The notes below the pieces were generated by a model. That model saw only the letters and a program-made list of their open reading frames with translations. It was not told the origin of the DNA and made no database searches. From contig JACOVG010000021.1 in assembly GCA_016177405.1 (NCBI GenBank), forward strand, positions 14,434 to 78,433: a DNA stretch of 64,000 nucleotides, given 5' to 3'. Below are positions 22,032-54,083 of the stretch, in pieces. The stretch's first letter is position 1, and each line of letters starts with the position of its first letter. Both the position numbers and the translations under genes were made by a program. This stretch comes from Candidatus Omnitrophota bacterium. GTDB taxonomy: Bacteria > Omnitrophota > Gorgyraeia > 1-14-0-20-64-10.

Positions 22032-22064
22032 GAGTGCAAAACTAGGTTTTTATACTTTTACAGA

Positions 22065-30266: not shown

Positions 30267-30275
30267 TTTGTCCTC

Positions 30276-30899: not shown

Positions 30900-32086
30900 T
30901 CCTCCAACAGCTCTTCCTGGGTTTTACGGATAAAGATCAAATCATCCAGATAGACCCTGCCCTTCCCCGGGCGGTGGAAATTCACCACGAAAGAGCCCAT
31001 CTGCGTCCAATCCAGTTTACCAAATTGGGCAAGCGGTATCACCACTTCCTGCCAGCCGGCGGTGAGCCCGCCGGGCAGGAACTTCTCAATCGTTCCGGCC
31101 TTCACCGAATCCCCGATGGTGAGCCACGACTTGTCCGACAGGCCGATCTCGAAGGTCTCCCCTCCCTTTTCCCCGCGCGCCCAAAAGGAGAGGGCCTTGA
31201 AGGGGCTCAAATCGTAGTAGGCGCCGTCGATCTGGTTTAAGAGGGTGTAATAGCCGCACCAGCCGGTGGCCTGCTTGTCGAAATCGAGCCGGAGGGATCT
31301 GCCCTGCTCCCCCCGCCGGGACTCCAGGACCCTCTTCGCCAAACACACGGAGGGAGGCCTCTTATAGGTCCCGGTCTTGCGGCCCAGGAGATTGATGTCG
31401 CTGTGGTCAAAATCGTCCAGGAGCAGAAACCCCTGCCGCTGGGCGGGTTCCTGGACCGAAACCAGCGGCTCCGTGTCAAACCGCAGTCCGTCAATCCAGA
31501 AGGCGCCTTCCCCTTCCTCGTTGAAGTTAAAGACCAGGCTGTAAACGCGGCTTAGATCCACCCCGAAGAAATCCTCCAGGGGCACGCGGACCTCCTGCCA
31601 GTCCGTGGTGATGCCGCCGGGCAGATACCGGTGGATCGAGCCGATGAAAACAGCGTCCTCCCGCTTGTTGGAAATGGTGTCGTTCATGCCGATCTCGAAG
31701 GTTTCTCCCCCCCTGGCTCCCTTCACCCAAAAGCTTAACGCGGCAAAGCGGGACAGGTCCCCCAGCACGATGAGGTAGGCCCCGCAGAAAAAGGGGTCCT
31801 TCGCCCGCCGGTAGCGGTATCGAACGGCCCCCGGCGAGGCCGGATCCTGCTTCACCCTCTCGTCCAGATAACAGCCGTACTTCGAGGGCTTCATGGCGAA
31901 GCCGCCGGTCTTGCCCCTCTTGGCAAAGCGCTCCTCGGCCGGAAGGAGCTTCGTGCCCAGCGGCAGGGGGGCGGCTTCGTCGAGAGAAACCATCTCCGCG
32001 AAAACAGCGGTAAGCAGAAGGAGGGACGCTCCAAAAAGGGACACACCTCGGCAAGAGTGTCCCCAAATGGAGCGTCCCCTTTTCAT
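30890..32086 (-). CDS. Secreted protein with two tandem copies of the CBM-like module
   Basis: Copy 1 has ...LSFWVKGARGGETFEIGMNDTIS...WQEVRVPLEDFF...FWIDGLRFD. Copy 2 has GFLLLDDFDHSD..., GWCGYYTLL, LSFWARGEKGGETFEIGLSDKSW..., RVYLDDLIFI. The likely start is the ATG at 32084-32086 (MKRGRSIW...), overlapping the TGA of the upstream gene (ATGA); the track start of 32125 is probably too far upstream. Confidence 0.6.
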   Translation of the reverse strand: MKRGRSIWGHSCRGVSLFGASLLLLTAVFAEMVSLDEAAPLPLGTKLLPAEERFAKRGKTGGFAMKPSKYGCYLDERVKQDPASPGAVRYRYRRAKDPFFCGAYLIVLGDLSRFAALSFWVKGARGGETFEIGMNDTISNKREDAVFIGSIHRYLPGGITTDWQEVRVPLEDFFGVDLSRVYSLVFNFNEEGEGAFWIDGLRFDTEPLVSVQEPAQRQGFLLLDDFDHSDINLLGRKTGTYKRPPSVCLAKRVLESRRGEQGRSLRLDFDKQATGWCGYYTLLNQIDGAYYDLSPFKALSFWARGEKGGETFEIGLSDKSWLTIGDSVKAGTIEKFLPGGLTAGWQEVVIPLAQFGKLDWTQMGSFVVNFHRPGKGRVYLDDLIFIRKTQEELLEEWE

Positions 32087-34419: not shown

Positions 34420-34450
34420 CTTACCACAACCTCGACGCCGCCCTTTTCCG

Positions 34451-40400: not shown

Positions 40401-40948
40401 GTCATCCGCTTGACCAGCCCGGCATCCAGGTTTTCGATGAAGCGCCGCGTGGGAGGTTGGGCCGGCCCAGGAGAGGGGGCCTCTTGCCCCAAGATGGGCC
40501 TGGGTAACCCAAGGAAGGCCGCGCCGGCCCAAAAGAGGGCGCGCCTGCCAAATTCCCTTCGATCCATCCAGCCGGCGGGCGTTGGCTGGCCGGAACGGAG
40601 GGCCTCTTCAAGCCCCACAGCCACGGGATTGCGAAGTCGGTCGTCCGCGGGCTGGATCTGCTTTAAAGAGCCGGCGAAGTCTGAAACCTCGTCCGAGATG
40701 ACGGATGGCAGGCCGGCCTTTTGGGCCTCCAGTTCCTGAAGGGCCTTCTCCTCCAGCTCAACGTTCCACCCCTTGGACCAGGAGTGGCTGGAAATACCCC
40801 CTGCTGTTTGCTTCTTTTCCGCGGCGGAGGGCGGGGAATCCTCCCCGTCAGCCGCCCTCGCGGGAAGAGGCAGAGAGGTCCACTCAAAGGTGAGCGCCAG
40901 AAGAAGCGCCAGGAGACGGCGGGATCTGCTTCGCATTCCCTTAGGCAA
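34451..40948 (-). CDS. Giant secreted multidomain protein (2165 aa). Contains a signal peptide, an N-terminal helical (alpha/alpha)6-glycosidase-like region, a phosphodiester-glycosidase-like domain, a ROK/ASKHA sugar-kinase-like domain, and a C-terminal Pol-beta-type nucleotidyltransferase motif.
   Basis: Continuous 6.5 kb ORF. The PDG-like domain (NPRERAGAMSAIGVRDDGQIILLWVTAH...REMARLLLEAGAVSGSLWGGSADTQQ) is paralogous to the C-terminus of giant 1. ROK/ASKHA-like motifs: VAVVGKMGVGEDQAIVF... and LLFVHIGNGIAAQMVVNGKSFQGEPEILYHSE. NTase motif: IGLHGGSVLSLLAEGGRAERAFKDLDLVLV, near 35.4 kb. Confidence 0.7.
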   Translation of the reverse strand: MPKGMRSRSRRLLALLLALTFEWTSLPLPARAADGEDSPPSAAEKKQTAGGISSHSWSKGWNVELEEKALQELEAQKAGLPSVISDEVSDFAGSLKQIQPADDRLRNPVAVGLEEALRSGQPTPAGWMDRREFGRRALFWAGAAFLGLPRPILGQEAPSPGPAQPPTRRFIENLDAGLVKRMTLWRQKTRDFFTAQKMEGPVKAPEGFRVQGYQSYQSDPRHPFDRYLGVERFWAYDMGVTLKYLVGRGEMEEAQWLAGRMIDIARQMEAKGQKGGWRFSYGTTFTDARAMSGGTAWVFKGLYLLALETKDPKFLNGINTKLAETAFAQQVTDPADPRYGLFRAGFGTGNESDFEKSNLQREEITTEHNWDYIDALRLAYRANQTADFQSPFLREIASRHELAMKESKRLLLTPEKVKAQLRRLELEAGGNLEKGVRQEHERVAQIIQGLPGKRRWATGMDPDGTLNLSWAADNEVWSPQGAYDPEMAENELKNVERHFLRTLKAQGFSHLPQGVDPKEEFTGVIFFDPNFKDPHVPPNENYDRMLQPEITWSIIFRLVQFGYYAADLEKREWAYALAQKLIRSMLRLAEIYGGAPYATLDIRGFFNTMLAVASNGHQGIVLDDLLQEGLPADDYLNVLPDREMKVAGQAPRWTASAQAKEGGSPGVSVKEVRLNGERLNLTLDGVPDGALATSWVEDDLQGEEGVWYIQPTAESVGQIQRGQAALSNWRADHRRFRKDHTLVVIVKDRKAWEAFQGRLKRDKTFLTTVLIKELLADKAFVEKTGFLLIRITGEQSAELLKPDAGLEELRLGKEEAWQGALGGPIGVVRPVLDGKGEPAGRVVLPDLSRLKLVSAWDPEVEGEAFPEFQTGPVDPALLERFRRAGLTLEAWQEKAKAPPEGLPPGAQRVYLSNSGQHNLKEPYGFLVALGRVIRPHWAWEKYPLDVQTLRERGYDDSFWAFVLEPGPPRMAALRFGSNRGDSPGIEELVDAQIEGGRAVAREARPSEILHAVSGMPLVLDGKDVSGQLRWSVREDGIPLKVRPNELVWNPRERAGAMSAIGVRDDGQIILLWVTAHVTAREMARLLLEAGAVSGSLWGGSADTQQELFGTHPILKAAADLGSKQRGQIGRPLVAALAGYETGTVSGGAGPSAPLGAGLEERSSASRHVARVADYEGPVAVVGKMGVGEDQAIVFRAGIPQGFWGPAEHERIFLKPDRSDAPGEIVERLVQAIRRVVERYGPDRVMYVYFSVPGFVDSDGALVERISWLPVFPKGFSFKEEVQKRLDQLYEGKRDPSLGRLEVDVVSNARAGARGEVGLRGTCPGVDNLLFVHIGNGIAAQMVVNGKSFQGEPEILYHSEAPHHLIFTGNPGSPDYRYVARETKGFHPTLAPGEQDLEDRVSIARILARARELLKADQLTLGGLVAAANRPEKERGENPAKTAIWESGRELGIALAVWLMETRSIFRERFEWPDYVVLGSTRPGLSELMIPSVQSGFSERLERYRGQGAGVPLDLNRNTLANSFVSSTVGDEADRVMLGGLPSPNQVDLYESRLRRLPPRGIEADASLARLEESLQERRVFHLDVPDEVKSDPALSRQISSLLSKIGTVDLEALQRGEPFPPLKGVWGLELRWLGSGRMELVASPAGSGAPFEGYRRFVQETIRPTARAAKAAVLELSGSGVHYLSAEGGSLNLLREVWLPEGLWLFLRDRQMRLVLKGVDQWDDAAWDDLAWLLDPRTLRLNVPPVMDPEIRGYSLPVWMLQGPGGPLAPLIGYPTEFRQDPQGWLAISQFVVRSRLFHQAVVPLADGLYEMDLRRFAYHPAKRFLQMLHQNGLFRIGLHGGSVLSLLAEGGRAERAFKDLDLVLVAEKEEAWEVQEEINLLPEAKSPEEAWRLERLAPKIKGLCQVLGVSDPRALFPGLAQDAGLKQPTFGRGSEEKIVELWGGLLDPAGLRITEHAAGKGDPYQGKLMLAAEMMVLLPHPADPQKAILLDPYGALRSLEEKRPLILGTSSATLRESKPWGYLFRIIRRMVIERMEFDPENRPEERASWREIRILVENLTDWGEGIPEGEEKQKTRAELEEWLRRLFAATYPFSFRAVGFLNELHVRGFLDIFGIDPQIVSLEVEKGLQAAAARIDLERRLPSAGQEPSVESGLEDSAAVSTQL

Positions 40949-43900
40949 GACTTTCCAGGTAGGTTTGAACTTCCTCCAGGCCGACCGCGATCCCGGAGAG
41001 GTTGTAGATCACGACTCCATGCCCCTCAAGAAATCTCAACAGCGCCTCGATATCCGCGACAACGGGCACGGTCTGAAGAATCACCCCGGGCAGCCCCGCG
41101 GGAAGATGCCGATTGAAATGCTCGGCCAGGGCCTGCTCGGCCAACGCCCTGTTCCCCCTGTGCCATTCCAGGGCCTCAACGGCATAGCGGGTGCTGGGAG
41201 TGCCGCTGGCTTCAAACAGCTCCTCAAGTGCCGCGGCTTCTTCGGCGGTCTTGGTCAGCACCGCCACCGGCGCGAGCTGGGCGATGAAGGGAGCCAGCCG
41301 CCAGCTCTGCGGGTTATCAAAAAGAAAGATTTTCGCTCTGGGACCTTCATTCACAACGCTAAAACCAAAGATTCCGTCGGAATCGAGAACGCCCAAGGCA
41401 GCCCTCTCCAGCGCGGTGAGCTGTCCCAGGCGCTTGGACAGCTCTTCCAATCCCGCCTCCCCTTTGCGTGAGGTTTCTTCCAGCTCTCGGGCCTTCTGCT
41501 TTAACTGGCCAACCAAAGCCCAGAGCTCCCCATTTTCCTTCTCCAACCCCCCAACCTTCTTTTTCAAATCTATCTTTTCGCCCTCCCAATCCCCGAGATC
41601 CGCCCACCTCTTCACTTGATGGTTAAACGCTTCTTCGAAGGCCGCTTGCGCTTCTAGATGCCCTCTCACATCGCTCTGGAGCTCTCCTATCTGGGTCTTG
41701 AGGGCGGCGGCCTCCTCCTGGTGGGCTCGCTGCCTCTTTCGAATCTCTTCCTTAATAGCCCTCCGGACTCCGGCAAGCTGGCCCTCCAGTTTGGCCACCT
41801 GCTCTTGATGCGCGTTACCCTCTTCTCGAGCTTCGTTCTGCAATTTCAAGACTTCTCTTTCCAGCTCTTCTTGAGCTTCCTTCGCTGAAAGCAACAGGCC
41901 CTCGCGCGCCTCCAGCGCCTCAACCAGCTCCGCGAATTCTACCTGCCACTCTCGCGTAGTCTCATCGGCTTGCCGGAGGGCTTCCTCACGGGCACGGGCA
42001 GCCTGCACAGCCCGCTCCATCTGCTCCCTTAATTCCTGCAATTCGGGCGCCCGGTCCACCGGCGCTGCCTCGGGCGCCGCAGTAACAGGCTCCACCTTCG
42101 GCGGAACCGGGCCCTCCCCTGGCAACAGAGCGGGCCATATCCCGGCTTCCTTGAGCTTGGCTTCAAGAAGAGATCTCTTCTCCTCATCCGGCTTCTCCGC
42201 CCAGCCTGCCGCCTGGTCCGCACGCAGATCTTTCAGAAGCCCGAAGGCCTGTTGACGCCTCTGGGGGTCATCGAGAAGATCTTGTGGAACGCCCCAGCGG
42301 CCAAGGGTCCACTTCTCCAAAACTTCTGAACCCTCCTCCAGCCCGGCACCAGACGCGGATCTCCGAATCTCATCCAGGACCTGGCGCATGGCGGGTATCT
42401 TATTCAGCTCATCCACCAAGTCCAGAAAGTTTGCAAAGAACGCTTTCGGATCGCTCTTTAACGCCTGCAAGATCTGATCCTTAGAAGGCAAGCCCGGATT
42501 CGCGTGAACCGCCGCCTCCAGGGCCTGCTCTAAGGTCACCGTTGAATGGACAGCGCCGGCAGGAGCGGCGCCGCGCGTGTCGGCAATGGCGTAGGCCAAG
42601 CCCTGCCAGGGGTCTATCGGCGTGAGGGGCTTGTTTTTTTGCAGCTCCGGGACAGTATGGTCTCTAAAACGAGCCACCACAGGCGCCACTTCGGTGTCCC
42701 ACGCCTCCAGGGCTTCCTTCAGCCGGACCATCCGCCGCAAGAGCTGTTGGGTTAAATGGAGTCTCAAAACGGGTTTGACCCCCGTGGCAACCTGCGCAGC
42801 CAATTGTTGGCGCTGGGCTCGATCCCTTTGGCTATCCCCCAGCTTCTCGATGGGTCCGTACTTTCCACCCATGAAGTCGTTCATGCTCTTATTGCCTGTG
42901 GAAGCTCGGAGCTGGGTGTTGACCCCGTCCAGATGTGTCCTTAGTTGATCTGCGGTCATTCCGATCAACTGATCAAAAGTCCCGCTCCCTTGGGCTGGCG
43001 GACCCAGAGATGGACCCATGGCCATGGGACGGGACAGCAGGCGAGCTGTTTCTCGCAGATCCTTTTCCAGCGCCTTGCGCCCCTCCGGGAGGAAATCCGG
43101 CTCCATCAGCAGGGCGTAGTTGCCCTCGGCGTTCGAGTCTCCCGGCTTCTCGTTGACCCATTCGAAGTTCAGATGGCTCAACGTCCAGCCGCTTAAGACG
43201 TTGGAGAGGTTGGAGACCCCGTGCGCCAGGGCGGGCCAGCGCATCTGGAGCGTGTCGAAGGCCTTCAGCCCCCAGAGGTTCTCCTGCAAATGGTAGGGGG
43301 TGCTCAAGAAGCTGTCTTTATAGCGGTTCCCCGCGTTATCGGAAATCACCGAGGCATCTCGGTCTACCGTCAGGGTGACCGCCTGGGCAGCCGGCCCTTG
43401 CCCTATCAGGACCGAAAACTTACTTCGACCGGGAACTTCAGCGACCCGCGCAATTCCTGTGACGGTTACCTCGTGCCTGTAACCGTCCAAGGTGACCAAG
43501 ACCCCCTCATGCGCCGACTGGTCGCCTGTAAAGATCGGCAGGTTGAACATCCGCTGGTTGGCGTCTCTCAAGGCCTCACCCAGGCCAAACTCCGCCGCGC
43601 GAGAAAGGGCCGAATCCAACTGTTTGAGTTCGGCCGAAAGGTGCTGCATCTCCTGCTGGAAGATGGCCGCCGCCGGAGGAAGCGGGCCGCCGGGTGGGTT
43701 GGCCCCCCGCCGCCTGCGGAACCTTTGCCCTGTGACGAGCTCGTACCATATCTCCAGCGGGCCTCCTGTTATTCCCCGGAACTCCTCGACCCCCTCGTAG
43801 CCGCCCAGGGTATCCTCGGCCTTCAGGAGCTGTTCCAGGATGGCGTAAGCACGCCGCCAGGCCAGCACATTGAAGGCCGAGATCGGCGCCAGGTCAGGCG

Positions 43901-46900
43901 GAACCTCAAGTATCCGGATGGCCTGCAGGATGGTAAGGGGCGGCGCATCCGGCGGAATGACTCCGCCTCTCCACCACAAGGGAACCTTGGTGAAATAGCC
44001 CGTGCCTTCCGCCAAGGGAAGACCCAGCTTGAGCTGCCAGGTGGAAGAGTCCCAGAATCCGGCGAACTGGTTGGGCGTTCTGCCGAAGAGCCGCGCCAAG
44101 ATCCGGATGTCCCGGCTGTAAGGAGGCCCAGAGGCGCGCAGAAGCCGGAAGAGCCCCGCGATCACCGCGCCCAGCCCCACCGAGATGGTAAGCGCGAACC
44201 CAAGACCCAGCGCCGGGAAACCGAAGGGAATGAGGACGAAACCGATGAAGGCCGCGAGCCAACCCATCAAGATCGGCTGGCGGCTTCCGGTCATCCAGAG
44301 GGAAGGCAGGAAAAGGTTTGCCTTGGCGGCGATCAGCCCGGAGACGATGCCAAAGAGAATCGAACCCGCCAGCCAAAAGCTGGGAGCCAGGAAAAGAATG
44401 CCCAAAGACGCCGCGAGGCCGGCGTAACCCGCAAAAACTCGCCGGGGAGTTCGGGAAAGGGGGTCGGCGGCAGCCAAAAGATAGACCAAGGCACCCACCA
44501 TGCCAACGCCGACAGAAGCGGCCAGGATGAGCCCCATGGCTCCCAAAACCCCGCCAAGGGCAGGCAGGGTCGGCCAAATGGCCGGGGCAAGCCCAAGAAA
44601 TTTCGCCAGCCCCAGAAGGGTAACTCCGGAAAGCACCCCTACCGCCAAGCCCCTGGGGGCCCGGCGATAGCCAGAGAACAATCCACCACCGGAGGCCGGG
44701 GGCCAAGCGGTAAGGAAAGCCGTGGCGACACCGGCTATGGCGCCTGCCGCCAGGCCTCCGCCGGCTCCAAGGAAAAGCGCCGCCAGACCTCCAACCATCA
44801 GTCCTGTCAGAGCCCCGGTGACGGCCCTGTGGCCCGGGTCCCGAACGTCGTAGAGGTGCAGACGGCCCTGTCTGAATTCGTCAGAGAAATGCTGGGTATC
44901 CGGCATGGCCGCCTGCGCTTGAGGAACGGTTTGGCCGGTCTCCTGCGCCCACTGCCGGACAAAGTTGGTGTCGCCCACTCGATGGTGGAGCCCCGCTAGA
45001 ATGTCTCCCCACCGCGCCCCGGTGTTGGCCCGCGTGTCTCTTAGCATCGCCATGAGGGTCCCGGAATCCTGGTGAAGGGGGGAGAGAGATCGCAGATAGA
45101 GCTCGAAGGGAATCTCGGGCTCTCCTTTTTGGTGCCTTTGATTCATCTCGTCCGCGTATTCATTGACCACAATTTCGCCCAGACCGCCCGCGCTTAATCC
45201 CAGCAGTTCATCAATAACCCCGCCCAGAGTCACCGGCTCGGGCTCCCGCCCGTAGCGCTTGACCCTGAACCCCCATGCCTTGGGGCGTTCCACGGCGATC
45301 TGGAGCAGCCGGAAATAGGGCCAGGCCGGATCGGCCGTATCGGTGCCGTGGGTCAACTCGAGTTGCGAAGAAATCTCTTCGCTGACATGGGTGTGCAGGA
45401 AGACATTGGCGAAGGGGTGGTGCTTCAATCCCACCAGAAGGCCGCGGGCCGCCTGTTCGGCCGCGGTGATGGCTTGTGGATTGCCTCGGATATTCGCTCG
45501 AGTCAAGCCGGCCGGAACCGGTTCCTTGGCCTCGTCGGCCTCCCTGGTGTTCAGGGCCTTGCCCTGGCCCTGCAATCTGAAGAAGGAAGCGGCAGTCACC
45601 GCCTCTCGAAGGATTGCCCGAACCACCCTCGTCCCCCACCAGCGCGAGAGGCGGTCCTCGGCCGGCAATTGAGAGGAGGAGGTGTCATGCCCTCTCCTGT
45701 TCTCCGGCGAGTCGGCCAGAAGCTCCAGATGGAGGGCGGCGCGGTCGCCGGCCATCCCCCGGTAAGACTCGAGCGTAACGTCCAAGTGCCTCTTGACGCT
45801 GACGTGGGTCTCTCCTGGAAACTCATACTGCTCCTCGTTGGGACCGGGCCAGGCCAACCGGAGAGGCTCCTCAAGCCCTGTTCTGTGGAGGGCGAGGCGG
45901 CCGCTGTCCATGTACTGCCAGCCCCGCAGAGCGGCCAGCTTCATCCCCTTGCTCAAGCTCTCCGGATCGTCCCGCATGATAAACCGGTAGTCGGTTCGCG
46001 ACGGCAAGAGCTGAACGACCGTCCTTAGCCCATCCCCTTGAACTTTCTCGCCCTTTTCATTTACATGGTAAGTGTCCACCTTGTAAGGAAGGGAAAGACC
46101 TGGGGTAGACCACCCTTCCAAGTAGGTGATAAAGCGCCCGTCCGACCCCGCAAAACCCGGAGAGACATCGGTGTTGAGCTGGCGAATCAATCCTCCATCT
46201 CGCGCGGGATCCACGGGCCGAATCCCGATGATGGGCGGGCTCTGCCCCATGCCGGTCCACTTCTCGAGGTAAGGGTCCTCCATGAGCCGCCAGAGTCCGG
46301 AGGCGACCGCGTTCCTCTCCGTGCTTAGCATGAGCCGCTCGGCCAAATCGGTAAACTCCTCTGTCTTGTAAAACTTCTCGTGGACCAGCTCGGCCAGCGG
46401 AAACATGAGGCGATACCCCGCCCACTCCCGCAGCTTGGTGAGGATATCCCCTGTGTACCAGCGCCCTTTCTGGTCCAAGGCGTTGACCCATTCTGTCTCC
46501 GGCTCGGAAAGGGTCATGACCGCTCCGGAGGAGTCGCGCACCAGGAAGAGAACGTCGGTCAAGCCGTGGAGTTTGGAGGGAAGGGTGTCCAGAATCGTTC
46601 GAAGAAATTTCTTTTTGAATGGCTCCTTTTCCTCCGCCTTTGGCTTATTGAGGATCCCGGTGAGCCGGGATTCTGCGGACTCATGATTAAAAACGGTCCA
46701 ATGGCCGCTTCTCATCCAAAAGCTCAGCAATTCCTTGGCGATGCTGTTGGCGGGGTTGGCTGGATCCAAGAGGGCTCTTTGTAAATCGCTCGCCCTAACA
46801 TTTGGAGCATAGGCTTTGGCTTGAGGACTTAAGGTGTCAGAAATTCTTCTGTCTTCCGTCAGCCACGTTAAAAATCTTTTCGCATATTCATGATCTGGAT

Positions 46901-49900
46901 GCGAGGAGTCCCCCAAAACACTGATAAAACCATTGATATTCCGTATAGCCCCCGAGACAAAACCCCATCGGTGGACAACCGACAAGATGCCCCTCGGAAG
47001 ACCCCAGACCCAGACCGCTAGGGCAGGAAGGAGGTGGACCCCAAGAAGCGTCCCGCCGATGATGGCAAGGGCGTGAGCGCCCACAAAGCCCGCCACCACC
47101 TGCGGCAAGAAAAACAGAGCCGCCGCGAATGCCGGAAAGATGAGCCAGCGAAGGTTGAGGAGGCGGCCGGCATCCTGATCCTCCCAGGCCCAGAGGATGT
47201 TGAAGACAAAAGCGGCCAAGCCGGCCACTCCAAGAATTGTCGCCCCAAAGGTCGGCCAGGCGATAAAGACGGTCAATAAAGCGGCCAAAAGCCCCGCTCC
47301 CAAAGCCAGGGGGTGCTCCACATTGGGCCTCTCCCCGACGAAGTCCATGAAGCGGCGCATCATCATGGAGAGGGTGTAGCCGCCCACCTGCCAGAGGACG
47401 ACGAGCGGCACCAGAAGGTCGTACTTGGCCCAGTGGAATTTCTGGGAGAAGCTCTTCAAGGTTCCATCCCTGTCCTCTCCGCCGAAAGCCGCCATGGGGA
47501 GAACCCCCAGGAAATATGGAATCGCGCGCAGGGCAAGCTCCACAGAACTCACCAGGTAAAAGAGGGCCATGAGGGTAAGCCGCCCGCCCAAGATCAGCCC
47601 CGCTCCCGCGATGATCCAAGGAGAGGCGTGAGCCACGACAAGCGCCGGCACGACCCACTTCAGGTAGGGGACAAGAAGAGCCCCCCAGGGCAGCCAGTTT
47701 CTAAGCATGAGCCCTGGGCCCCATTTCTCCTTCCGCATGGCTGGGCGGTCTCGCTTCTCCAGGCGCCAGCGGACCAGCCACAGGATTCCACGTTTTACCG
47801 AGGAGCGGTATTTATCGTTTTCGGGCTTATAGGCCCCCTGAACCACGGTCCAGGGCCGCCAATCCAGGTGGATGGGGGGCGCGGTGACGCCTTTTTTGAT
47901 CCATTCCTCCACCGGGCCGTACATCTCGGCCATCAGGTCCTGGTTGATCCAGAGGCCCTGCCGGCGCTCCGGGGTCAGCCGCTTGGCCGATTCCACATAG
48001 AGCCGGGCGAAGAGCTCCTCGATATTGCCCACCTGAAGGAAATGGTGATCCACCGAGATCCGCCGGGTGGCCGGGTTGACCCGGATCATCGCCGCCCCGA
48101 GCAGGCGCCGAAGGTATTTGACCTTTCGCATGAGATCCGCCGTCACTTCAGGCGGCAGGGCCATCTGAACATCCATCCATCCCGACGCGGGAATAGGGCC
48201 ATTCTGAAGAGCGGCTACCTGGGCGGCCGGATCGACCGCTTTTATGGCTTCCGCCACCGCCTGCCGCCAGGCGTCGTTGACGTATCCTCCGCCCAGCGGC
48301 ACTTGTGCCGCCATCCGGCCCGGCGCCGCGGGGGTCAAGGCCCGGCCCACCGACTCTTGAGCGAAGGTGCCAAGCTCCGCCAGATCATCCGGTAGAGGAA
48401 GCTTGTCGGGAGGCGGCACATTGCTGGACTGCATCGTTGCGCTTCGCTTGGCGAATCCCCAAGTGGGAAGGTTAAAGACGGTGCCGGCCTCCACCAGTCC
48501 CCGGAAGCGCTCCACGCGGCCGCCACTTCGGGCAACCTCCTTCTGCCGGATCCCATACACCTTCGCCGCGACAAGGTTTTCGATCTTGACCGGAGCGGCC
48601 TCCTCCAGGCCGGTCAGGTGGGGGTCTCCTGTGCTGGCCGAGGGCACTTGCCGGAAGGAAACGGCGCCCGGGGTCCGGGGCGGAGGACGAGAGCGCCAAT
48701 GGGCCGCGGCGTAGACCAAACTTGCCAAGGCCCATCTGACCGACAGCCACGCCAGCCAGAGGGCGCCGCTGCCCAAGAGGAAAATCCAGCCGCGGATCAT
48801 AGCGCCGCGGTAACTGTCCCGCGGTTTCTCCGGGGCCAGCTCCAGGGGCTCTCCCGGTTTCTTTTCCTTCCGCGCCTGCTCCTCCACCGACCGCTCGAGG
48901 GCCGCGCGAAACTCCTTCTTGCTCTTGGGAACCAGGGTAAGGCTCGCCTTGCCATCCGCAGCGGTCTGCTCGACCACCCTCGCCCAAAGGCCGAACCGAT
49001 CCTCCAGGAGCTCTTTCATCTGCCGGGAATCCGGCTTCCCCGCGGCGCCGCCCAGCGCTTCCCTCCAACCGTTCCAATAGCCCAGCTCTTTCCGAAAGAT
49101 CTCAAGCTCTTCTTCGATCTGGTCTCTTGGGAAGCTGTCGGCCGGTTTGGCCTCCGGGCTGACCACCTCCACAATCCCCTGCGTCCTGGAAAGGAGGCGT
49201 TCCGGCGTGACGAAACTGCTCACCCGGCCGCGGATTCCCTCCAGGTCCCAGCGAAGCGCCGCGGCGGACCAGCTTAGCCTGCCCCGGGGGAAATCCTTGA
49301 GCCACAAAACAATCCGCCGGGGATGCCCCTTCTTAAGATCGACCACCGCCTCCCACTCGTACCGCCTGCCGGTCGAGTGGTGATAGGCCGTCAGAACAAT
49401 CCGGTAGAGGGTTTCTTCCGCGCTGCCGTGGTGGGTCAACTGAAGCGCCACCGGAACGGCCTCGCCCTCGACCGCGTCCTGGTGGGAGGGTGCCGCCCCT
49501 TGCACCCTGGCGAATCCCCAGCCGGCATGGACCATCGGCAAGCTGGGCATATTCCCCACAAAGACCTCCTCGAACCCTTCCAGATCGGTGACAAAACGGG
49601 GTTTCTGCGGGCTGTCGGCGATCCGGGCCAATTCCTCTTCCCAGGCCCGCGCCAACGCCTTGGCTTTTTCATGATCGTCGTTCTGGGGATCGCGGAGGGC
49701 GTCGCTGAAATCACCGAAGCTCCGATGCCCGTTCAACAAGGAACCGGCGTAGGCCTTCACCAGGGCGGGACTGGCGGCGCCCTGTCTCAACAAGGCTTCG
49801 TCGGTGGGAACCATCAGCCGCTCAAAGAGATCTTCCTGGACCTGCTCATCGCCGCCAACCGTCGGAAGCGGCTCCAACTGGGCGACTGTTTCAGAAAGCC

Positions 49901-52900
49901 TGCCGCCGCCGATGATGACCGCCTTCTTCCAGCGATGTCCGAAGGCCTTCTCCCGTGGTTCCTTCATGTCCGCCAGATCCTGAAGTTTCTTGACCGCCGC
50001 GGCAGGATCGGTCAAGGAGACCTCGGCGGCCTGGAGACTTTCCTTGCTGGACGCCATGGAATCCCCCGCGAAGATCAGGGGGGTGTTCAGCTCGCCCACC
50101 ACCACCCGTTCCAGCTCCTCGCGGGCCTCTTTCCCGGCGCCAGTGATCAGAATCCCTTTCGCGCCGAAGCCGTTCTCCTGGTTCAGAAGCAGAAGGACCC
50201 GCAGGGCCGCCGGCAGGGTATCCTGGCGCCTGCCCTTGAGGCGCTCCGCGCTCTCGCGCTGTTGGGCCAACTTGGAAATCTTCAATTGAGAGAGGATTCC
50301 CGCGTCCAGCTCAAAGTAAACATCAAAACCCTCCTCCAGGGCGCGGCCAATCACCTGGCCGGCCTTTTCCATGCCGCCCAAGAGAGCCCCTCCGGGGCGG
50401 GCGGTCTTCTCGGCCCTCTGGGCCAGGGCCTGAAAAAGCTCCCCCTCCAGAGCCGGAATCCTCAAGGAGATCGAGGTCACCCCGCTCGCCCGCAGGTACT
50501 TGAGGGCGTACGTGAAGGCATCCGGATCGTCCGCCTCCTGAAGCTCCATCCGCGCCACCGTCTCCATCCGGCCGGACGCCGCCAAGCCGATCCTGTTCTG
50601 ACGCAGCACGCGCAAGGCCGCCGCCTCCTCCAGCCGCCCCTCGGCAAGCAGTCTCCCTTCCTTCTCTCCCGGCAGTCCCTGAAGGATCTTCCCGAATCTT
50701 TGCCGCGCCTCTCGGACAAGGTAAGGCCAGTATTGGGACACGACAGAGAGATCCGTGCCGGGACCCACCGATTCCTCCACATATCCCTCCGGGCCAAAGA
50801 GGCGGATGTTATAAAAGTTCACCCCCTGCACCAATTGTGGAAACGGTATCTCCACAGCCCCCTCTTTCTCCCCCGGCGGCATGTTGACCTGCCCCCATTC
50901 CTCCGGCTGAACCTTCTCACCGGAACCGCCGTAGCCCTTGCCGAATCGGACCGCCACGGCCGCGTTGCCGCCGCGGCTCTGGCGCCACGCCTTCAGCCAC
51001 CAGGGATCGTTGGGGTCTTCCACATAATCCCGCTCGACGGTCACGCGAAGAGAAAGCTTCTCGTCTACCGTGGGAACGTGGAGGTCGGCGCTGGTTCCCA
51101 GGACATTGGTCGTTAGAACCTCGGTCTTGCCGTCCTTCGCGCGGAGGATCTCCACCTTCTTCACCCGGAGGGCTCCTGGCGAGGAGAGAGTACTTTGGAG
51201 CTGGCGGATGGGCTTCAGCCAAATCCCCTCTTGCGCCGCCGGCCAGGCATCCAGCTCAAACCGGAACTTCCCTTCGGCCGTGTTGACAATCATCCTCATC
51301 AGGCGATGGGGAACAGCCCCGCCCACCGTTCCGGCCGCCTGCCCTTGGGCGAGACTCCTTCCGAAATCCCAGAACTTATCCCAGAAAGTCCTTGGCCTTG
51401 GCTTCTCAACCCGCTCCCAAAGACTGGACTCTTGGCTGTCGCCAATCATGAAATAGACAAAATCGGAGAAGTGGCCGGCCTGTTCGGAAAACTCCGGCGT
51501 CAAGGCCCATCCCTCCGGGCCGGCGATCACCCTCCGGCCAGGCATCCCCAGGGCCAGGAGGGCGCCGGTGCCGGTGATGTTCACCACAACACTGGGCGCC
51601 TGACTTTCTTCAACCACCTCCTTGAGCCTGGCCTCTGTTCCGGCAGGGTCCTTGGCAAATTCATCTTGCAGGGTAGCCGTGCGCTCTTGGAGGGCCGGCA
51701 TGAGATTCACCGCCAGCGCCATTCTCTCTTTCGGCACCCCGGGAAGCTGCACCTTCCCGAGGGAGGCGCCCATTTGATCCAGATCCGCCGCCGCCATGAC
51801 CACCGGAACGATTCGCCGATCCATCTCCTTCACGCCGCGCTCCTCCAGAACCTCGGAAAGAATCCGGCCAAAGGGATCCAGCTCGGCCGAGGGAATAAAG
51901 GTATGAAGCTTGAACTCCCAGGGAAACTGCAGGCGCTTGAGGGCCTCCAGGTGCCACTCGTACCAGCGCCAGGCCAAGCTCTTCAAAAGCTCCGGGTTTT
52001 TCGGCTGCCCATTCGCGTCGGCGGCCGAGGCCTCCTTCCACTCCGGCGTGGTCCAGATCCGGTTTCTCACGTAGGCCTGATCCCAGTCGAAATCGGGGTA
52101 GGCGAGGTAGGCCTCGACGTAATGGAGAAGAGCGCTGTCTCGTCCGGAGGGATGAACGCAGTCGGCCACATCCACCAAGGGGGAAACCTTGGCTCCCTTG
52201 GCGCGCGCGGTGTGAATATCCCGGACAAAGACCTCGTGGATCGCCCTCTTGTTCGGATAGGCCTCGAACCCTTTAAAATCGACGGCGGCCTCGGTTGCCA
52301 GCAGGACCCTTCCCTCAACCGCACCCACACCCTGGAAGATTCTCTCCTTGACTGCCTGACCGGCCAGATCCAGTCGAGCGTAATCCCAGATGGGCACCAC
52401 CAGTTTCCCTCTAGGGGCAACCTGGGGCGCCTCCCAGGTTTCCGCGGAATCCGCTCCTCCGGGCGCCCAGGCCCAGACGCGCGCCAGGTTTCCCATTATC
52501 TCGGAATTCACAGAGGGCCTGAACATGGTCCGGGGGACAATCCCCCGGCTGCGCTCTGGAAGGGTGCCCGCGAGGGCCGTCTCCCTGCCTTCCTCTGGCT
52601 GTTTGAAGATGATCTCCGCGTTCAGAACATCCGGATCCGGCTCTCCCTCCTCGAAAGAATCCAGAGCGAAGAACCTTATCGGCAGTTGATCCGGCGAGAA
52701 GGGATATTTGACTTCACCCTTGGTCACAATGGGATCCCCAGGCCCGGCCTGTCTCAAATAAATTGGGAACAGCCCTGGAACGAGAACTCCGGATTCGGGC
52801 GCGGCCTGATCCGACGGCTGTCCCTGAACCGGTTCGGCCGCGGCCCCATGGGAAAAACCGAGGAAGGCCGCCAGCCCCACCGCCGCCAGAGAAGCCCATT

Positions 52901-53957
52901 TCAAACCGCGGCGTGCGAACCTTTTCTGCTCCTCTTCCTCCCTGGCTTCTTCTTGGGCGCGCGCCTGCTCCAATTGACCGCGCCTGGCCAGGGCCTGCTT
53001 AACGGCGGGGATCTCAAGATAATGCCTGGCCACCCTCCCATAGGACCGGGGCGACTTCTCGAGCGCCAGCTGCAGCGCGTACCGGTCTTCCAAGCGAAGG
53101 GCAGCCGCCGCGGCGATACCCAGGTTAAAGCGATCGCTGAACCGCTCCATGAGGGGATCGTTGGTTGCCTGCACGGCCAATCGAACGCCCTGGCTCCAAC
53201 GGGACGGCTTGGCCTTGGACGGAACGGGGACCACGACGGTCAAATAGCCCAAGGGGGTGTTGGGTGACGACTTCTTCGAGGAAACCCCCTCCGCGATAAG
53301 CTCACCGACTACCTTGGGAGAATCAAAGGCGCCCAGAACCAAGAGGGTCACATTCACCCCTTTTTGGCGCAGTTGGGCAACCTTCTCCAGCGTCTCTCTC
53401 GTAATACCCGACGGCTCCAGAAGCGGCTCGCCGGCCTGCCGGTCCTCCTGCCAAGGAGTCCCAAGAGAGACAACAACTGCTTTATCAAATTTGCTTTCAA
53501 AGAGAAGGTATCCCTGCCGCTTGAAGGCGCGCGGCGCGGGCACCAAGAAAGCGGCGGAACGAGAGGGCTTGGGAACAATGTTTTCCTTGGGAGGCGGCTC
53601 GACCGTCGCCCCTCGCTTCACCCAGAAATTCACCGTCGGGCTGGAAACCGTCGGCTGCTTGGGTGAGGCAGACTCCGTTTGGACCGGGACATGAAGGGCC
53701 TCTTCCAGGCCGGATTTGACGCTGCCTGGGGTTGATGCTTCCGCCTGCTCGACACGCAGGTGGGTTTCCACGGGGACAGTCCCCGTTGCCCAGCCCGCGG
53801 GAAGGAGGGTGGTGACTGTGAAGGCGAAGGCGGTCGCGGCGGCTAGCCCCTTGAGGATCGGCTTAAAACGGGGTTTCTGGGAGGTCAGCAAGACTCCTCC
53901 ATCAGCTTCAGGAGAAGCTTTTTTAATCGTCCCTAAGAACTCTGTAAAGTTAAACAT
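40941..53957 (-). CDS. Giant polytopic membrane protein (4338 aa) with large soluble domains and a ~250-aa C-terminal coiled coil
   Basis: Continuous 13 kb ORF whose start overlaps the stop of giant 2 by 8 nt. There are several clusters of TM helices. Examples are GLKWASLAAVGLAAFLGF, WLPWGALLVPYLKWVVPALVVAHASPWIIAGAGLILGG...LIFPAFAAALFFLPQVVAGFVGAHALAIIGG, and the region ALTGLMVGGLAALFLGAGGG...GFPALGLGFALTISVGLGAVIAGLF. The coiled-coil region is ELQELREQMERAVQAARAREEALRQ...LEKENGELWALVGQLKQKARELEE. No enzymatic motif was confidently recognised. Confidence 0.7.
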   Translation of the reverse strand: MFNFTEFLGTIKKASPEADGGVLLTSQKPRFKPILKGLAAATAFAFTVTTLLPAGWATGTVPVETHLRVEQAEASTPGSVKSGLEEALHVPVQTESASPKQPTVSSPTVNFWVKRGATVEPPPKENIVPKPSRSAAFLVPAPRAFKRQGYLLFESKFDKAVVVSLGTPWQEDRQAGEPLLEPSGITRETLEKVAQLRQKGVNVTLLVLGAFDSPKVVGELIAEGVSSKKSSPNTPLGYLTVVVPVPSKAKPSRWSQGVRLAVQATNDPLMERFSDRFNLGIAAAAALRLEDRYALQLALEKSPRSYGRVARHYLEIPAVKQALARRGQLEQARAQEEAREEEEQKRFARRGLKWASLAAVGLAAFLGFSHGAAAEPVQGQPSDQAAPESGVLVPGLFPIYLRQAGPGDPIVTKGEVKYPFSPDQLPIRFFALDSFEEGEPDPDVLNAEIIFKQPEEGRETALAGTLPERSRGIVPRTMFRPSVNSEIMGNLARVWAWAPGGADSAETWEAPQVAPRGKLVVPIWDYARLDLAGQAVKERIFQGVGAVEGRVLLATEAAVDFKGFEAYPNKRAIHEVFVRDIHTARAKGAKVSPLVDVADCVHPSGRDSALLHYVEAYLAYPDFDWDQAYVRNRIWTTPEWKEASAADANGQPKNPELLKSLAWRWYEWHLEALKRLQFPWEFKLHTFIPSAELDPFGRILSEVLEERGVKEMDRRIVPVVMAAADLDQMGASLGKVQLPGVPKERMALAVNLMPALQERTATLQDEFAKDPAGTEARLKEVVEESQAPSVVVNITGTGALLALGMPGRRVIAGPEGWALTPEFSEQAGHFSDFVYFMIGDSQESSLWERVEKPRPRTFWDKFWDFGRSLAQGQAAGTVGGAVPHRLMRMIVNTAEGKFRFELDAWPAAQEGIWLKPIRQLQSTLSSPGALRVKKVEILRAKDGKTEVLTTNVLGTSADLHVPTVDEKLSLRVTVERDYVEDPNDPWWLKAWRQSRGGNAAVAVRFGKGYGGSGEKVQPEEWGQVNMPPGEKEGAVEIPFPQLVQGVNFYNIRLFGPEGYVEESVGPGTDLSVVSQYWPYLVREARQRFGKILQGLPGEKEGRLLAEGRLEEAAALRVLRQNRIGLAASGRMETVARMELQEADDPDAFTYALKYLRASGVTSISLRIPALEGELFQALAQRAEKTARPGGALLGGMEKAGQVIGRALEEGFDVYFELDAGILSQLKISKLAQQRESAERLKGRRQDTLPAALRVLLLLNQENGFGAKGILITGAGKEAREELERVVVGELNTPLIFAGDSMASSKESLQAAEVSLTDPAAAVKKLQDLADMKEPREKAFGHRWKKAVIIGGGRLSETVAQLEPLPTVGGDEQVQEDLFERLMVPTDEALLRQGAASPALVKAYAGSLLNGHRSFGDFSDALRDPQNDDHEKAKALARAWEEELARIADSPQKPRFVTDLEGFEEVFVGNMPSLPMVHAGWGFARVQGAAPSHQDAVEGEAVPVALQLTHHGSAEETLYRIVLTAYHHSTGRRYEWEAVVDLKKGHPRRIVLWLKDFPRGRLSWSAAALRWDLEGIRGRVSSFVTPERLLSRTQGIVEVVSPEAKPADSFPRDQIEEELEIFRKELGYWNGWREALGGAAGKPDSRQMKELLEDRFGLWARVVEQTAADGKASLTLVPKSKKEFRAALERSVEEQARKEKKPGEPLELAPEKPRDSYRGAMIRGWIFLLGSGALWLAWLSVRWALASLVYAAAHWRSRPPPRTPGAVSFRQVPSASTGDPHLTGLEEAAPVKIENLVAAKVYGIRQKEVARSGGRVERFRGLVEAGTVFNLPTWGFAKRSATMQSSNVPPPDKLPLPDDLAELGTFAQESVGRALTPAAPGRMAAQVPLGGGYVNDAWRQAVAEAIKAVDPAAQVAALQNGPIPASGWMDVQMALPPEVTADLMRKVKYLRRLLGAAMIRVNPATRRISVDHHFLQVGNIEELFARLYVESAKRLTPERRQGLWINQDLMAEMYGPVEEWIKKGVTAPPIHLDWRPWTVVQGAYKPENDKYRSSVKRGILWLVRWRLEKRDRPAMRKEKWGPGLMLRNWLPWGALLVPYLKWVVPALVVAHASPWIIAGAGLILGGRLTLMALFYLVSSVELALRAIPYFLGVLPMAAFGGEDRDGTLKSFSQKFHWAKYDLLVPLVVLWQVGGYTLSMMMRRFMDFVGERPNVEHPLALGAGLLAALLTVFIAWPTFGATILGVAGLAAFVFNILWAWEDQDAGRLLNLRWLIFPAFAAALFFLPQVVAGFVGAHALAIIGGTLLGVHLLPALAVWVWGLPRGILSVVHRWGFVSGAIRNINGFISVLGDSSHPDHEYAKRFLTWLTEDRRISDTLSPQAKAYAPNVRASDLQRALLDPANPANSIAKELLSFWMRSGHWTVFNHESAESRLTGILNKPKAEEKEPFKKKFLRTILDTLPSKLHGLTDVLFLVRDSSGAVMTLSEPETEWVNALDQKGRWYTGDILTKLREWAGYRLMFPLAELVHEKFYKTEEFTDLAERLMLSTERNAVASGLWRLMEDPYLEKWTGMGQSPPIIGIRPVDPARDGGLIRQLNTDVSPGFAGSDGRFITYLEGWSTPGLSLPYKVDTYHVNEKGEKVQGDGLRTVVQLLPSRTDYRFIMRDDPESLSKGMKLAALRGWQYMDSGRLALHRTGLEEPLRLAWPGPNEEQYEFPGETHVSVKRHLDVTLESYRGMAGDRAALHLELLADSPENRRGHDTSSSQLPAEDRLSRWWGTRVVRAILREAVTAASFFRLQGQGKALNTREADEAKEPVPAGLTRANIRGNPQAITAAEQAARGLLVGLKHHPFANVFLHTHVSEEISSQLELTHGTDTADPAWPYFRLLQIAVERPKAWGFRVKRYGREPEPVTLGGVIDELLGLSAGGLGEIVVNEYADEMNQRHQKGEPEIPFELYLRSLSPLHQDSGTLMAMLRDTRANTGARWGDILAGLHHRVGDTNFVRQWAQETGQTVPQAQAAMPDTQHFSDEFRQGRLHLYDVRDPGHRAVTGALTGLMVGGLAALFLGAGGGLAAGAIAGVATAFLTAWPPASGGGLFSGYRRAPRGLAVGVLSGVTLLGLAKFLGLAPAIWPTLPALGGVLGAMGLILAASVGVGMVGALVYLLAAADPLSRTPRRVFAGYAGLAASLGILFLAPSFWLAGSILFGIVSGLIAAKANLFLPSLWMTGSRQPILMGWLAAFIGFVLIPFGFPALGLGFALTISVGLGAVIAGLFRLLRASGPPYSRDIRILARLFGRTPNQFAGFWDSSTWQLKLGLPLAEGTGYFTKVPLWWRGGVIPPDAPPLTILQAIRILEVPPDLAPISAFNVLAWRRAYAILEQLLKAEDTLGGYEGVEEFRGITGGPLEIWYELVTGQRFRRRRGANPPGGPLPPAAAIFQQEMQHLSAELKQLDSALSRAAEFGLGEALRDANQRMFNLPIFTGDQSAHEGVLVTLDGYRHEVTVTGIARVAEVPGRSKFSVLIGQGPAAQAVTLTVDRDASVISDNAGNRYKDSFLSTPYHLQENLWGLKAFDTLQMRWPALAHGVSNLSNVLSGWTLSHLNFEWVNEKPGDSNAEGNYALLMEPDFLPEGRKALEKDLRETARLLSRPMAMGPSLGPPAQGSGTFDQLIGMTADQLRTHLDGVNTQLRASTGNKSMNDFMGGKYGPIEKLGDSQRDRAQRQQLAAQVATGVKPVLRLHLTQQLLRRMVRLKEALEAWDTEVAPVVARFRDHTVPELQKNKPLTPIDPWQGLAYAIADTRGAAPAGAVHSTVTLEQALEAAVHANPGLPSKDQILQALKSDPKAFFANFLDLVDELNKIPAMRQVLDEIRRSASGAGLEEGSEVLEKWTLGRWGVPQDLLDDPQRRQQAFGLLKDLRADQAAGWAEKPDEEKRSLLEAKLKEAGIWPALLPGEGPVPPKVEPVTAAPEAAPVDRAPELQELREQMERAVQAARAREEALRQADETTREWQVEFAELVEALEAREGLLLSAKEAQEELEREVLKLQNEAREEGNAHQEQVAKLEGQLAGVRRAIKEEIRKRQRAHQEEAAALKTQIGELQSDVRGHLEAQAAFEEAFNHQVKRWADLGDWEGEKIDLKKKVGGLEKENGELWALVGQLKQKARELEETSRKGEAGLEELSKRLGQLTALERAALGVLDSDGIFGFSVVNEGPRAKIFLFDNPQSWRLAPFIAQLAPVAVLTKTAEEAAALEELFEASGTPSTRYAVEALEWHRGNRALAEQALAEHFNRHLPAGLPGVILQTVPVVADIEALLRFLEGHGVVIYNLSGIAVGLEEVQTYLESLA

Positions 53958-54083
53958 CTTCGTCAGATGCGTCCCTCCTTTACAGATACCCCTACATCAG
54001 AAAGTTTACCTGATGCGCCGCCAATTATCAAATTTTATAACTAAGTATATTCTGCTACTAACTATTAGCCAGATCTCTCTTCG
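53958..54083 (-). promoter_or_regulatory. AT-rich intergenic island between giant genes 4 and 3, with a promoter-like TTGATA-17-TAAACT, an AAGGAGG RBS and a CATCAG/CTGATG hairpin
   Basis: The only AT-rich (~40% GC) segment in this part of the window. The minus strand reads ...TTGATAattggcggcgcatcaggTAAACTttctgatgtaggggtatctgtAAAGGAGGgacgcatctgacgaagaATG. Confidence 0.35.

Follow-up and report, generated by a model that had tools for sequence, protein, structure and literature searches.

A 4338-residue polytopic membrane giant in a multi-giant locus of an Omnitrophota bacterium, and the GLEE motif of its linkers

What could a bacterium do with a membrane protein of more than four thousand residues that is encoded between other giants? 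The question is posed by a 64,000-nt stretch of a Candidatus Omnitrophota assembly (GCA_016177405.1, contig JACOVG010000021.1, positions 14,434 to 78,433; hereafter the window, with coordinates counted from its first letter), which encodes four giant proteins on the minus strand. We analyzed giant 3, which is preceded by giant 2 and followed by giant 4 and, farther downstream, by giant 1. Giant 3 is the sole polytopic membrane protein among the window giants. It defines a novel family of polytopic membrane giants, which is very rare, and it shares with the neighbouring giants a short motif, [A/S/T/G/V]-G-L-E-E (hereafter GLEE). Tentatively, and with confidence somewhat short of even, we propose that giant 3 would serve as the membrane hub of a modular multi-giant envelope system.

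An intact gene and a very rare protein family

The open reading frame (ORF) of giant 3 is translated in a single unbroken frame with zero internal stops. In the Logan assemblies gene callers begin it 22 codons later, at codon 23, which gives a protein of 4316 amino acids (aa), P0001; an exact look-up with the 4338-aa version returned no match, the gene called elsewhere being the 4316-aa version. Identical P0001 is present on 5 Logan contigs, which represent no fewer than four sequencing runs (L002-L005; SRR12113429, SRR12113428, SRR12113418 and SRR12113420). An ortholog with 73-85% identity by segment and 77% across the alignment is found on contig CAYJSX010000001.1 (L001), titled 'uncultured Planctomycetia bacterium'. 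Over 3819 codons, the two genes mismatch at 12.8, 10.7 and 25.8% of the first, second and third codon positions, respectively. Because the identical product occurs on five contigs and substitution relative to L001 is of the coding type, the gene is real and under coding constraint. One intact ORF had been claimed in the initial annotation and was indeed found, with no frameshift in the contigs carrying identical P0001.

The L001 ortholog has a frame change near aa 795 (L001 12373-12384), for which it cannot be told whether it is an assembly error, and is missing ~90 aa from the mid insert (aa 2324-2452 of giant 3; L001 16979-17088). The frame change, together with an internal signal-peptide-like segment of giant 3 at aa 355-375, could speak for a chimeric assembly or for adjacent genes fused through sequencing errors. 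Such an artefact is hardly credible in view of the recurrence of the identical product across runs, the coding-type substitution along the ORF and four distant homologs which are also single ORFs, of 3.8-5.4 thousand aa each. Giant 3 has no internal repeats and no paralogy with other window proteins; Rfam and tRNA scans of the 64-kb window were empty.

The distant homologs were retrieved by an exhaustive phmmer (HMMER) search of 1.84 billion (1.84e9) cluster-representative proteins with aa 1783-2982 as the query. It yielded seven proteins: the identical P0001, four related giants and two fragments. The four giants, P0002 (3795 aa), P0003 (5397 aa), P0004 (3908 aa) and P0005 (4846 aa), are 36-41% identical to giant 3 and have their hydrophobic segments arranged much as in giant 3. 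A first metagenome scan gave no relatives and a second one gave three loci, including a distant member, L012, on a 181-kb contig of 40.7% GC. With giant 3, L012 has in common the end of the first membrane bundle, the start of block C, the second bundle and block D. The alignment of six members revealed a core conserved between aa ~450 and ~3750 and three variable parts: an N-terminal insert (aa 100-400), a mid insert (aa 2328-2450) and the last ~500 aa. All six display the order of what may be called a GLEE-punctuated membrane giant, namely, anchor, block A, transmembrane (TM) segment, block B, 8-TM bundle, block C, 8-TM bundle and block D with its YSRD motif.

No known family could be assigned to giant 3, as the initial annotation had stated. 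Pfam gave zero families at E<=0.1 and NCBIfam only coiled-coil noise. Whole P0004 and P0005 and five block-A sequences also matched no Pfam families; L012 matched NAGPA at its C-terminus and, below threshold, GH25. A phmmer search of PDB sequences with the single sequence, and searches with five profiles (A, B, C+D, D and the C-terminal cap), produced nothing below E=0.01. Word-indexed searches with aa 2000-3320, aa 380-1700 and a 6-sequence block D profile returned no matches, in an index that missed even the identical P0001. AlphaFold2 models of aa 430-1629 (single sequence; predicted local distance difference test score, pLDDT, 39.3) and aa 2452-3651 (4-sequence alignment; pLDDT 35.6) were unusable.

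Membrane bundles, soluble blocks and the variable tail

TM-like segments were located with Kyte-Doolittle windows and a Hessa-type insertion scale; helix counts and topology are heuristic. Both scales agree on some 18-20 hydrophobic helices in five clusters separated by soluble stretches of about 300-1,340 aa (Table 1), which bears out the earlier description of at least three TM-helix clusters with long soluble regions between them. Clusters 2 and 3 are the two bundles, and the low-confidence AlphaFold2 model also draws 8 helices in the second. In the same scans, the other three window giants (8,100 aa in total) displayed only N-terminal signal peptides and marginal peaks.

Lysine/arginine (K/R) counts in the aligned loops of the six family members alternate as expected with both flanks of each bundle in the cytoplasm. 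This suggests that everything after aa ~1755, the coiled coil included, is cytoplasmic apart from short loops; since the positive-inside counts put the coil in the cytoplasm, it is unlikely to span the periplasm. Block A is probably extracytoplasmic in the family. The predicted layout, with the N-terminus inside, followed by the anchor, block A outside and the rest in the cytoplasm, is consistent in P0002, P0003 and P0004. The weaker segment at aa 355-375 has the look of a signal peptide (RRGLKW...SHGAAA↓EP).

Conservation is highest in block D, which has the motif YSRD..FGR.P.QF.G[FY]WD...W[RK]RAYA...KAEDT..GY and reaches 41-56% identity at aa 3280-3480. The first bundle has invariant polar positions D2180, Q2190, Y2194, S2197, M2198, R2201, D2205, N2212, H2215, P2216, D2260, D2262, H2308 and P2311. 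These residues, which could be matched to no family, suggest an active or conducting site. Invariant polar residues in each bundle and large conserved cytoplasmic blocks beside them would also suit a giant polysaccharide synthase/exporter or transporter, in which the bundles would form the conduit and the blocks would be novel catalytic domains, as in cyclic beta-1,2-glucan synthase or BcsA. Consistent with this alternative, genes of sugar-phosphate/nucleotide-sugar type lie nearby in the window (Glucosamine_iso, DUF4954/LbH, HAD, ARMT1 and DUF4922), and an NTP_transferase-like gene adjoins L012. However, glycosyltransferase, GH94, PilZ and transporter families were undetected at any threshold in giant 3, P0004 and P0005, and the PDB profile searches were empty as well. 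We thus regard a synthase or transporter as improbable.

The tail of giant 3 starts with a highly charged, proline-free segment of 234 residues (aa 3972-4205); strict heptad windows span 3970-4049. The initial annotation had recognized this heptad-rich coiled coil correctly but had put it at ~41.7-42.5 kb, whereas it really occupies 41.39-42.04 kb. Weak NCBIfam matches to SMC/Rad50 coiled coils (aa 3966-4182) score 15 bits versus cutoffs of 567-729. An SMC/Rad50 ATPase identity was rejected, because the matches are far below cutoff and confined to the coiled-coil region, whereas such ATPases also have Walker A/B head domains. The small alpha/beta domain described after the coil was confirmed as a conserved 'cap' domain of ~140 aa. 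The cap, with its ..Y[LI]GSLA end, also terminates P0003 (L007 25796-26191) and the upstream giant of L008 (1620-2000). By this similarity it is a recurrent C-terminal domain of giants in these loci; no relatives of it were found in PDB or Pfam.

The coiled coil is not a conserved family feature, as the C-terminal ~500 aa vary even between close orthologs. In L001, an EDR1/CTR1/ARMC3 peptidase-like domain replaces the coiled-coil tail (21974-23102); behind it lie a P-rich linker and, where the contig ends, AGLEE. Such variation, the peptidase-like domain and a short motif recurring in linkers bring to mind polymorphic toxin/effector delivery, with an N-terminal delivery region, helices that enter a target membrane, variable C-terminal payloads and autoprocessing as in MARTX and large clostridial toxins. 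Yet the sixteen-odd helices with short loops, the positive-inside pattern and the N-terminal signal-anchor are what one expects of a resident integral membrane protein. In addition, Pfam searches and the window genes revealed no RTX repeats, cysteine protease domain (CPD), glucosyltransferase or immunity-like gene, and divergence between orthologs does not begin at a GLEE site. Delivery of this kind is therefore very improbable.

The GLEE motif and the neighbouring giants

The four window giants contain 19 GLEE motifs, each with A, S, T, V or G directly ahead of it and six of them in giant 3, whereas 0.87-0.9 are expected by composition and the maximum in 2000 shuffles was 6. GLEE is the top-enriched tetrapeptide of the giants (22-fold), and 19 of the 33 LEE tripeptides have G before them. 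No ordinary (non-giant) window gene has the motif in frame, and all other frames together hold two, by chance. Codons vary from copy to copy, which places the signal at the protein level; a DNA-level origin, such as a repeat or an uptake sequence, was rejected for this reason and because the motif is found in frame only.

GLEE positions are shared in the family alignment at ~83, ~1780, ~2817 (a degenerate AGLTR in giant 3) and ~3800-3870. In most giants with an available N-terminus, including the six aligned family members, the motif is found ~25-80 aa past the N-terminal signal or anchor. Its flanks are richer in P/S/T/G/A (0.465 vs 0.369, p=1e-4). It also brackets the NAGPA-like module common to giant 1 (sites at 2205/2534) and giant 4 (805/1157). 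Giants of four other loci are enriched in GLEE too, with seven in 2478 aa of the L007 mega-giant, five, four and seven in three L009 giants and four in P0004. P0003 is devoid of GLEE and uses [A/S]-G-[A/I/V]-E-E instead: the variant AGAEE coincides with the start of its NAGPA-like module, and another variant in its C-terminal tail is aligned with the last site of giant 3. A lineage-specific L-to-A switch would be the expected outcome of co-evolution with a recognising protein. A literature search for 'GLEE motif' found nothing.

Modules of the window giants recur in other contexts. P0003 contains two modules of the secreted window giants, namely, aa 232-613 of giant 4 and the NAGPA-like module (L007 10610-11884 and 23051-23977). 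The latter corresponds to aa 796-1144 of giant 4 and aa 2202-2526 of giant 1, and a NAGPA domain likewise forms the end of the L012 giant. Judged by homology, modules are exchanged between different giant ORFs.

The simplest reading is that GLEE would mark junctions between separable modules. Recognition by a processing protease and docking of a partner are the most likely roles and are equally compatible with the sequence data. Of the two, we prefer processing because of the formal parallel with Mycoplasma hyopneumoniae adhesins, whose disordered linkers have S/T-X-F↓X-D/E sites, and because cleavage is suspected in giant proteins of the Planctomycetota-Verrucomicrobiota-Chlamydiota (PVC) group and the mega-giant has a conserved HExxH motif. 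The HExxH of giant 2 is at aa 1240 (FLVPHELTHGLQ), is conserved in the L001 ortholog and may belong to a zincin protease module; this module is a possible candidate for the processing protease. Taken to its conclusion, this line of thought would make the giants bacterial polyproteins, that is, precursors of 2-16 thousand aa cut at [A/S/T/G/V]-G-[L/A]-E-E by a cluster-encoded protease, for which the HExxH module would be the candidate. Giant 3 would then release two separate 8-TM modules, the pieces would reassemble into an envelope-spanning glycan-harvesting machine, and new ..[S/T]-G-L C-termini might be ligands of the cluster PDZ protein. We consider this full version rather doubtful.

About as doubtful is the opposite case, in essence the view of the initial annotation, namely, an unprocessed single-chain scaffold or tether of ~470 kDa, anchored by its TM segments, with the coil as a spacer or oligomerisation rod and GLEE as a linker or docking motif, e.g. 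for TPR or PDZ proteins. Proteins of both types are encoded in the same minus-strand gene run, the ORF is intact and conserved, a coil-like segment does exist and Pfam detected no protease domain in giant 3. On the other hand, the coil is predicted to be cytoplasmic and is not conserved in the family, and movement of modules between giant ORFs with the motif kept at their borders fits separable units better than a rigid scaffold.

We return to the membrane hub. Giant 3 would be an inner-membrane protein made from one ORF, the only polytopic part of a multi-giant cluster in PVC-group bacteria. Its chain would run from an N-terminal signal-anchor through block A (~1,300 aa, outside the membrane) and a single TM helix or hairpin to cytoplasmic blocks B, C and D, which alternate with two ~8-helix bundles, and would end in a lineage-variable cytoplasmic tail, here the coiled coil and the small cap domain. 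The bundles may be anchoring or conducting elements. The hub would couple the TM-poor upstream mega-giant to the downstream secreted giants with NAGPA and carbohydrate-binding modules (CBM) and to the CBM proteins. GLEE linkers joining the modules would most likely be recognised by a processing protease, so that maturation resembles that of a polyprotein, or by a docking partner. The whole assembly may represent a glycan-binding/processing envelope machine. The glycan theme is suggested because the window has CBM9/30/11 proteins, NAGPA-like modules and fusions of a solute-binding protein (SBP) with a permease and of CBM30 with a permease.

Several observations weigh against the hub, its topology or the role of GLEE in it. 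The motif is absent from L012, occurs once in P0002 and only as variants in P0003, and the positions of sites 3, 5 and 6 of giant 3 are not retained in distant homologs. Topology was predicted from hydropathy and K/R counts, and the extra TM-like segment at aa 355-375 leaves the side of block A ambiguous in giant 3. Moreover, NAGPA-like modules are usually extracytoplasmic, and in P0003 and L012 they are C-terminal to the second bundle, in conflict with a cytoplasmic tail. None of the blocks has a Pfam, NCBIfam or PDB match from which a biochemical function could be read, and the AlphaFold models are of low confidence. Finally, the glycan theme comes from the neighbours, with no contribution from giant 3 itself, and the taxonomic label (Planctomycetia/PVC) comes from one metagenome-assembled genome title.

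Table 1. Features of the giant 3 region in the window (nucleotide positions in the window; residues of giant 3)
Feature	Position	Strand	Residues	Remarks
Giant 3 ORF	40941..53957	minus		4338 aa, 13,017 nt, ATG start; from ORF listing and translation
Upstream mega-giant (giant 2)	54084..64000 (ORF listed 54084-63893)	minus		C-terminal 3.3 thousand aa; no stop up to window end
Spacer to upstream giant	53958..54083	minus		126 nt, AT-rich; AAGGAGGG 15 nt ahead of ATG
Sigma-70-like promoter-like site	54031-54003	minus		single, in spacer
N-terminal signal-anchor TM	53802..53858	minus	34-52	K/R-rich aa 1-33 ahead; two scales
GLEE site 1	53700..53711	minus	83-86	KSGLEEAL; position occupied in six of six aligned members; AGLEDAL in P0003
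Weaker internal TM / signal-peptide-like segment	52833..52895	minus	355-375	RRGLKW-ASLAAVGLAAFLGFSHGAAA-EP; within poorly conserved N-terminal insert (aa ~100-400)
Region A, conserved soluble block	48858..52670	minus	430-1700	31-33% identity to distant homologs; no domain detected
TM segment	48702..48800	minus	1720-1752	one long helix or hairpin; two scales
GLEE site 2	48600..48611	minus	1783-1786	P/S-rich linker; AGLEE at same position in P0004, P0005
Region B, conserved soluble block	47703..48590	minus	1790-2085	K/R-rich pre-membrane stretch at end
TM cluster 2 (first bundle)	46977..47687	minus	2091-2327	about 8 helices; two scales
Variable insert	46608..46976	minus	2328-2450	mostly deleted in L001 ortholog
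Region C, conserved soluble block	44838..46604	minus	2452-3040	first ~100 aa conserved in L012 too
GLEE site 3	45867..45878	minus	2694-2697	conserved in L001 only
TM cluster 3 (second bundle)	44133..44825	minus	3045-3275	7-8 G/A-rich helices; two scales
Region D, most conserved soluble block	42648..44120	minus	3280-3770	conserved in L012 too
GLEE site 4	42333..42344	minus	3872-3875	G/S linker past region D; same linker in P0004, P0005 (~3803-3829 of giant 3)
Proline-free charged heptad-like helix	41388..42044	minus	3972-4190	probable coiled coil; holds GLEE site 5; not conserved in family
GLEE site 5	41442-41453	minus	4169	inside coiled coil
C-terminal alpha/beta 'cap' domain	40944..41366	minus	4198-4338	~140 aa; ends ..AVGLEEVQTYLESLA (GLEE site 6)
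GLEE site 6	40971-40982	minus		near C-terminal end of cap
Downstream secreted giant (giant 4)	34451..40936	minus		2161 aa from ATG 40936; signal peptide; NAGPA-like module between GLEE sites

The junctions of giant 3 with its neighbours differ from the original account, in which its start overlapped the stop of giant 2 and co-translation was argued from the overlap. In fact, no stop is overlapped: the start at 53957 is separated from the TAA of the upstream giant by the 126-nt spacer, and tight spacing exists at the 3' end only. There, the TAA of giant 3 (40943-40941) is followed 4 nt further on by the ATG (40936) of the 2161-aa secreted giant. An 8-nt 'overlap' in the mechanical ORF list (downstream giant 34451-40948) is an artefact of an in-frame TTG upstream of this ATG.

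By contrast, the proposed tie between giant 3 and the neighbouring giants held up. Homologs in L006 and L007 have a giant at either side, and homology to the upstream giants of L001, L006, L007 and L009 extends over the C-terminal 500-900 aa of giant 2. L006 encodes an upstream giant of 8495 aa, which continues beyond the locus, then P0002 and proteins of 1434 and 532+ aa. In L007, a 135-kb groundwater contig, a 15744-aa giant, a 722-aa gene, P0003 and a 1919-aa giant are followed by CBM9/CBM30/CBM11 proteins. L008 has an upstream 666-aa fragment and P0004 before the contig end, and L009 has a giant of at least 3671 aa, a 1457-aa gene and P0005; these two loci show the upstream giant only, in contigs which end or turn to unrelated genes with little or no downstream sequence. 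Placement between an upstream mega-giant and downstream secreted giant or CBM genes is supported by the window, L001, L002-L005, L006 and L007, the CBM genes being present in the window and L007. Beside the identical copies of giant 3 on Logan contigs, the upstream mega-giant has at least 7922 aa; the 3.3 thousand aa seen in the window have no clear TM segment and 3 GLEE motifs.

Downstream, the signal peptide of giant 4 reads MRSRSRRLLALLLAL..ARA↓AD (window 40600-40936, minus). A second, Tat-like signal sequence (MDRREFGRRALFWAGAAFLGL) is present ~110 aa into this protein, just past its first GLEE. The same minus-strand run includes CBM30/CBM11/CBM9 proteins, a double-PDZ protein, a TPR protein and giant 1 (13911-21974, minus), which has a signal peptide and combines ARMT1-like, DUF4922 and NAGPA domains. 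The giant 1 region (14001-22000) has a GC content of 0.56-0.59 versus 0.61-0.66 in the rest of the window. Paralogous membrane-anchored proteins with CBM30/CBM11/CBM9-like domains form a run at 28648-34641 (minus), the largest CBM protein (32083-34641) being 64% identical to its L007 counterpart. Two importer genes have unusual fusions: a permease (BPD_transp_1) with an N-terminal CBM30-like domain (5028-6362, minus) and a solute-binding protein (SBP_bac_1) fused to a permease (BPD_transp_1; 6320-8605, minus). Five genes at 8646-13906 (plus) encode one HAD hydrolase and four proteins without Pfam matches, with paralogs at 9290-9973 and 10881-11912; several have N-terminal anchors like those of the CBM proteins.

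Relation to known systems

By layout, giant 3 is reminiscent of cyclic beta-1,2-glucan synthase (Cgs), an inner-membrane protein of ~3-4 thousand aa that has large cytoplasmic domains between its TM helices and belongs to a carbohydrate context. The defining domains of Cgs, GT84 and GH94, are detectable by Pfam, whereas in giant 3 neither GT84 nor GH94 (Glyco_transf_36) was detected by Pfam or NCBIfam, and a PDB sequence relative was likewise lacking. MARTX and large clostridial toxins are modular proteins of several thousand residues with hydrophobic segments, and their modules are released by processing in inter-domain linkers. In contrast to them, giant 3 has by Pfam no RTX repeats, Peptidase_C80 CPD or glucosyltransferase domain and looks like a resident, anchored protein.

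For the motif, the closest parallel is provided by the P97/P102 adhesins of Mycoplasma hyopneumoniae, which are endoproteolytically processed at S/T-X-F↓X-D/E in disordered regions (PMC3322551). In both cases, a short motif recurs in disordered linkers of large envelope proteins, with a small or hydroxyl residue at -3, a hydrophobic one at -1 and an acidic one at +2. The proteins are not homologous and belong to different organisms and protein classes, the Mycoplasma proteins are not polytopic, and cleavage at GLEE is a prediction.

Giant-gene loci of PVC bacteria, to which that of giant 3 belongs, were recognised recently and are functionally opaque. The sole paper on PVC giant proteins describes 'Archaeovorin' and Dockerin types in Omnitrophota/PVC, single ORFs of more than 30,000 aa (>90 kb) in which TM regions are numerous and which have SBP/permease genes downstream (West-Roberts et al. 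2023, bioRxiv 10.1101/2023.11.21.568195). Domains reported in them include SecA_DEAD-like, SecA preprotein-binding, glycosyltransferase (GT), glycoside hydrolase (GH), methyltransferase, NUDIX, HEAT or dockerin domains and C39/S8 peptidases, and a locus resembling type II secretion systems and type IV pili (T2SS/T4P-like) lies upstream (10.1101/2023.11.21.568195). Cleavage into smaller polypeptides is suspected there, with cleavage points stated to be unknown, and neither GLEE nor the term 'polyprotein' is used (10.1101/2023.11.21.568195).

Giant 3 resembles these proteins in its PVC metagenomic lineages, including groundwater ones, very long ORF, many TM regions, mostly unannotatable sequence, carbohydrate-binding/processing theme and suspected cleavage. 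The SBP_bac_1-BPD_transp_1 and CBM30-BPD_transp_1 genes (5028-8605), on the same strand ~32 kb downstream, may be counterparts of the reported SBP/permease genes; upstream of giant 3, the window ends within the mega-giant. The likeness is by description only, and there are differences: giant 3 has 4338 aa and the neighbouring mega-giants 7.9-15.7 thousand aa as opposed to >30,000 aa, it has none of the reported domains by Pfam at E<=0.1 (nor do P0004 and P0005), and it is one of several clustered giants.

PVC giant genes are a recognised blind spot, being expressed, yet not understood in their insertion, cutting and role. The locus described here represents a smaller, tractable version of them, with four giants and a clear division of labour between a TM-poor mega-giant, a polytopic giant and secreted NAGPA/CBM giants, and this multi-giant arrangement is conserved across several environments. 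As no relative beyond five giants was found among the 1.84 billion representatives, and no match in Pfam or PDB sequences, new folds or functions may be represented by the two 8-helix bundles and the four conserved soluble blocks. GLEE makes the question of cleavage directly testable and offers natural boundaries for splitting giants into structure-prediction units. If true, the polyprotein reading would supply the cleavage points that West-Roberts et al. 2023 (10.1101/2023.11.21.568195) called unknown.

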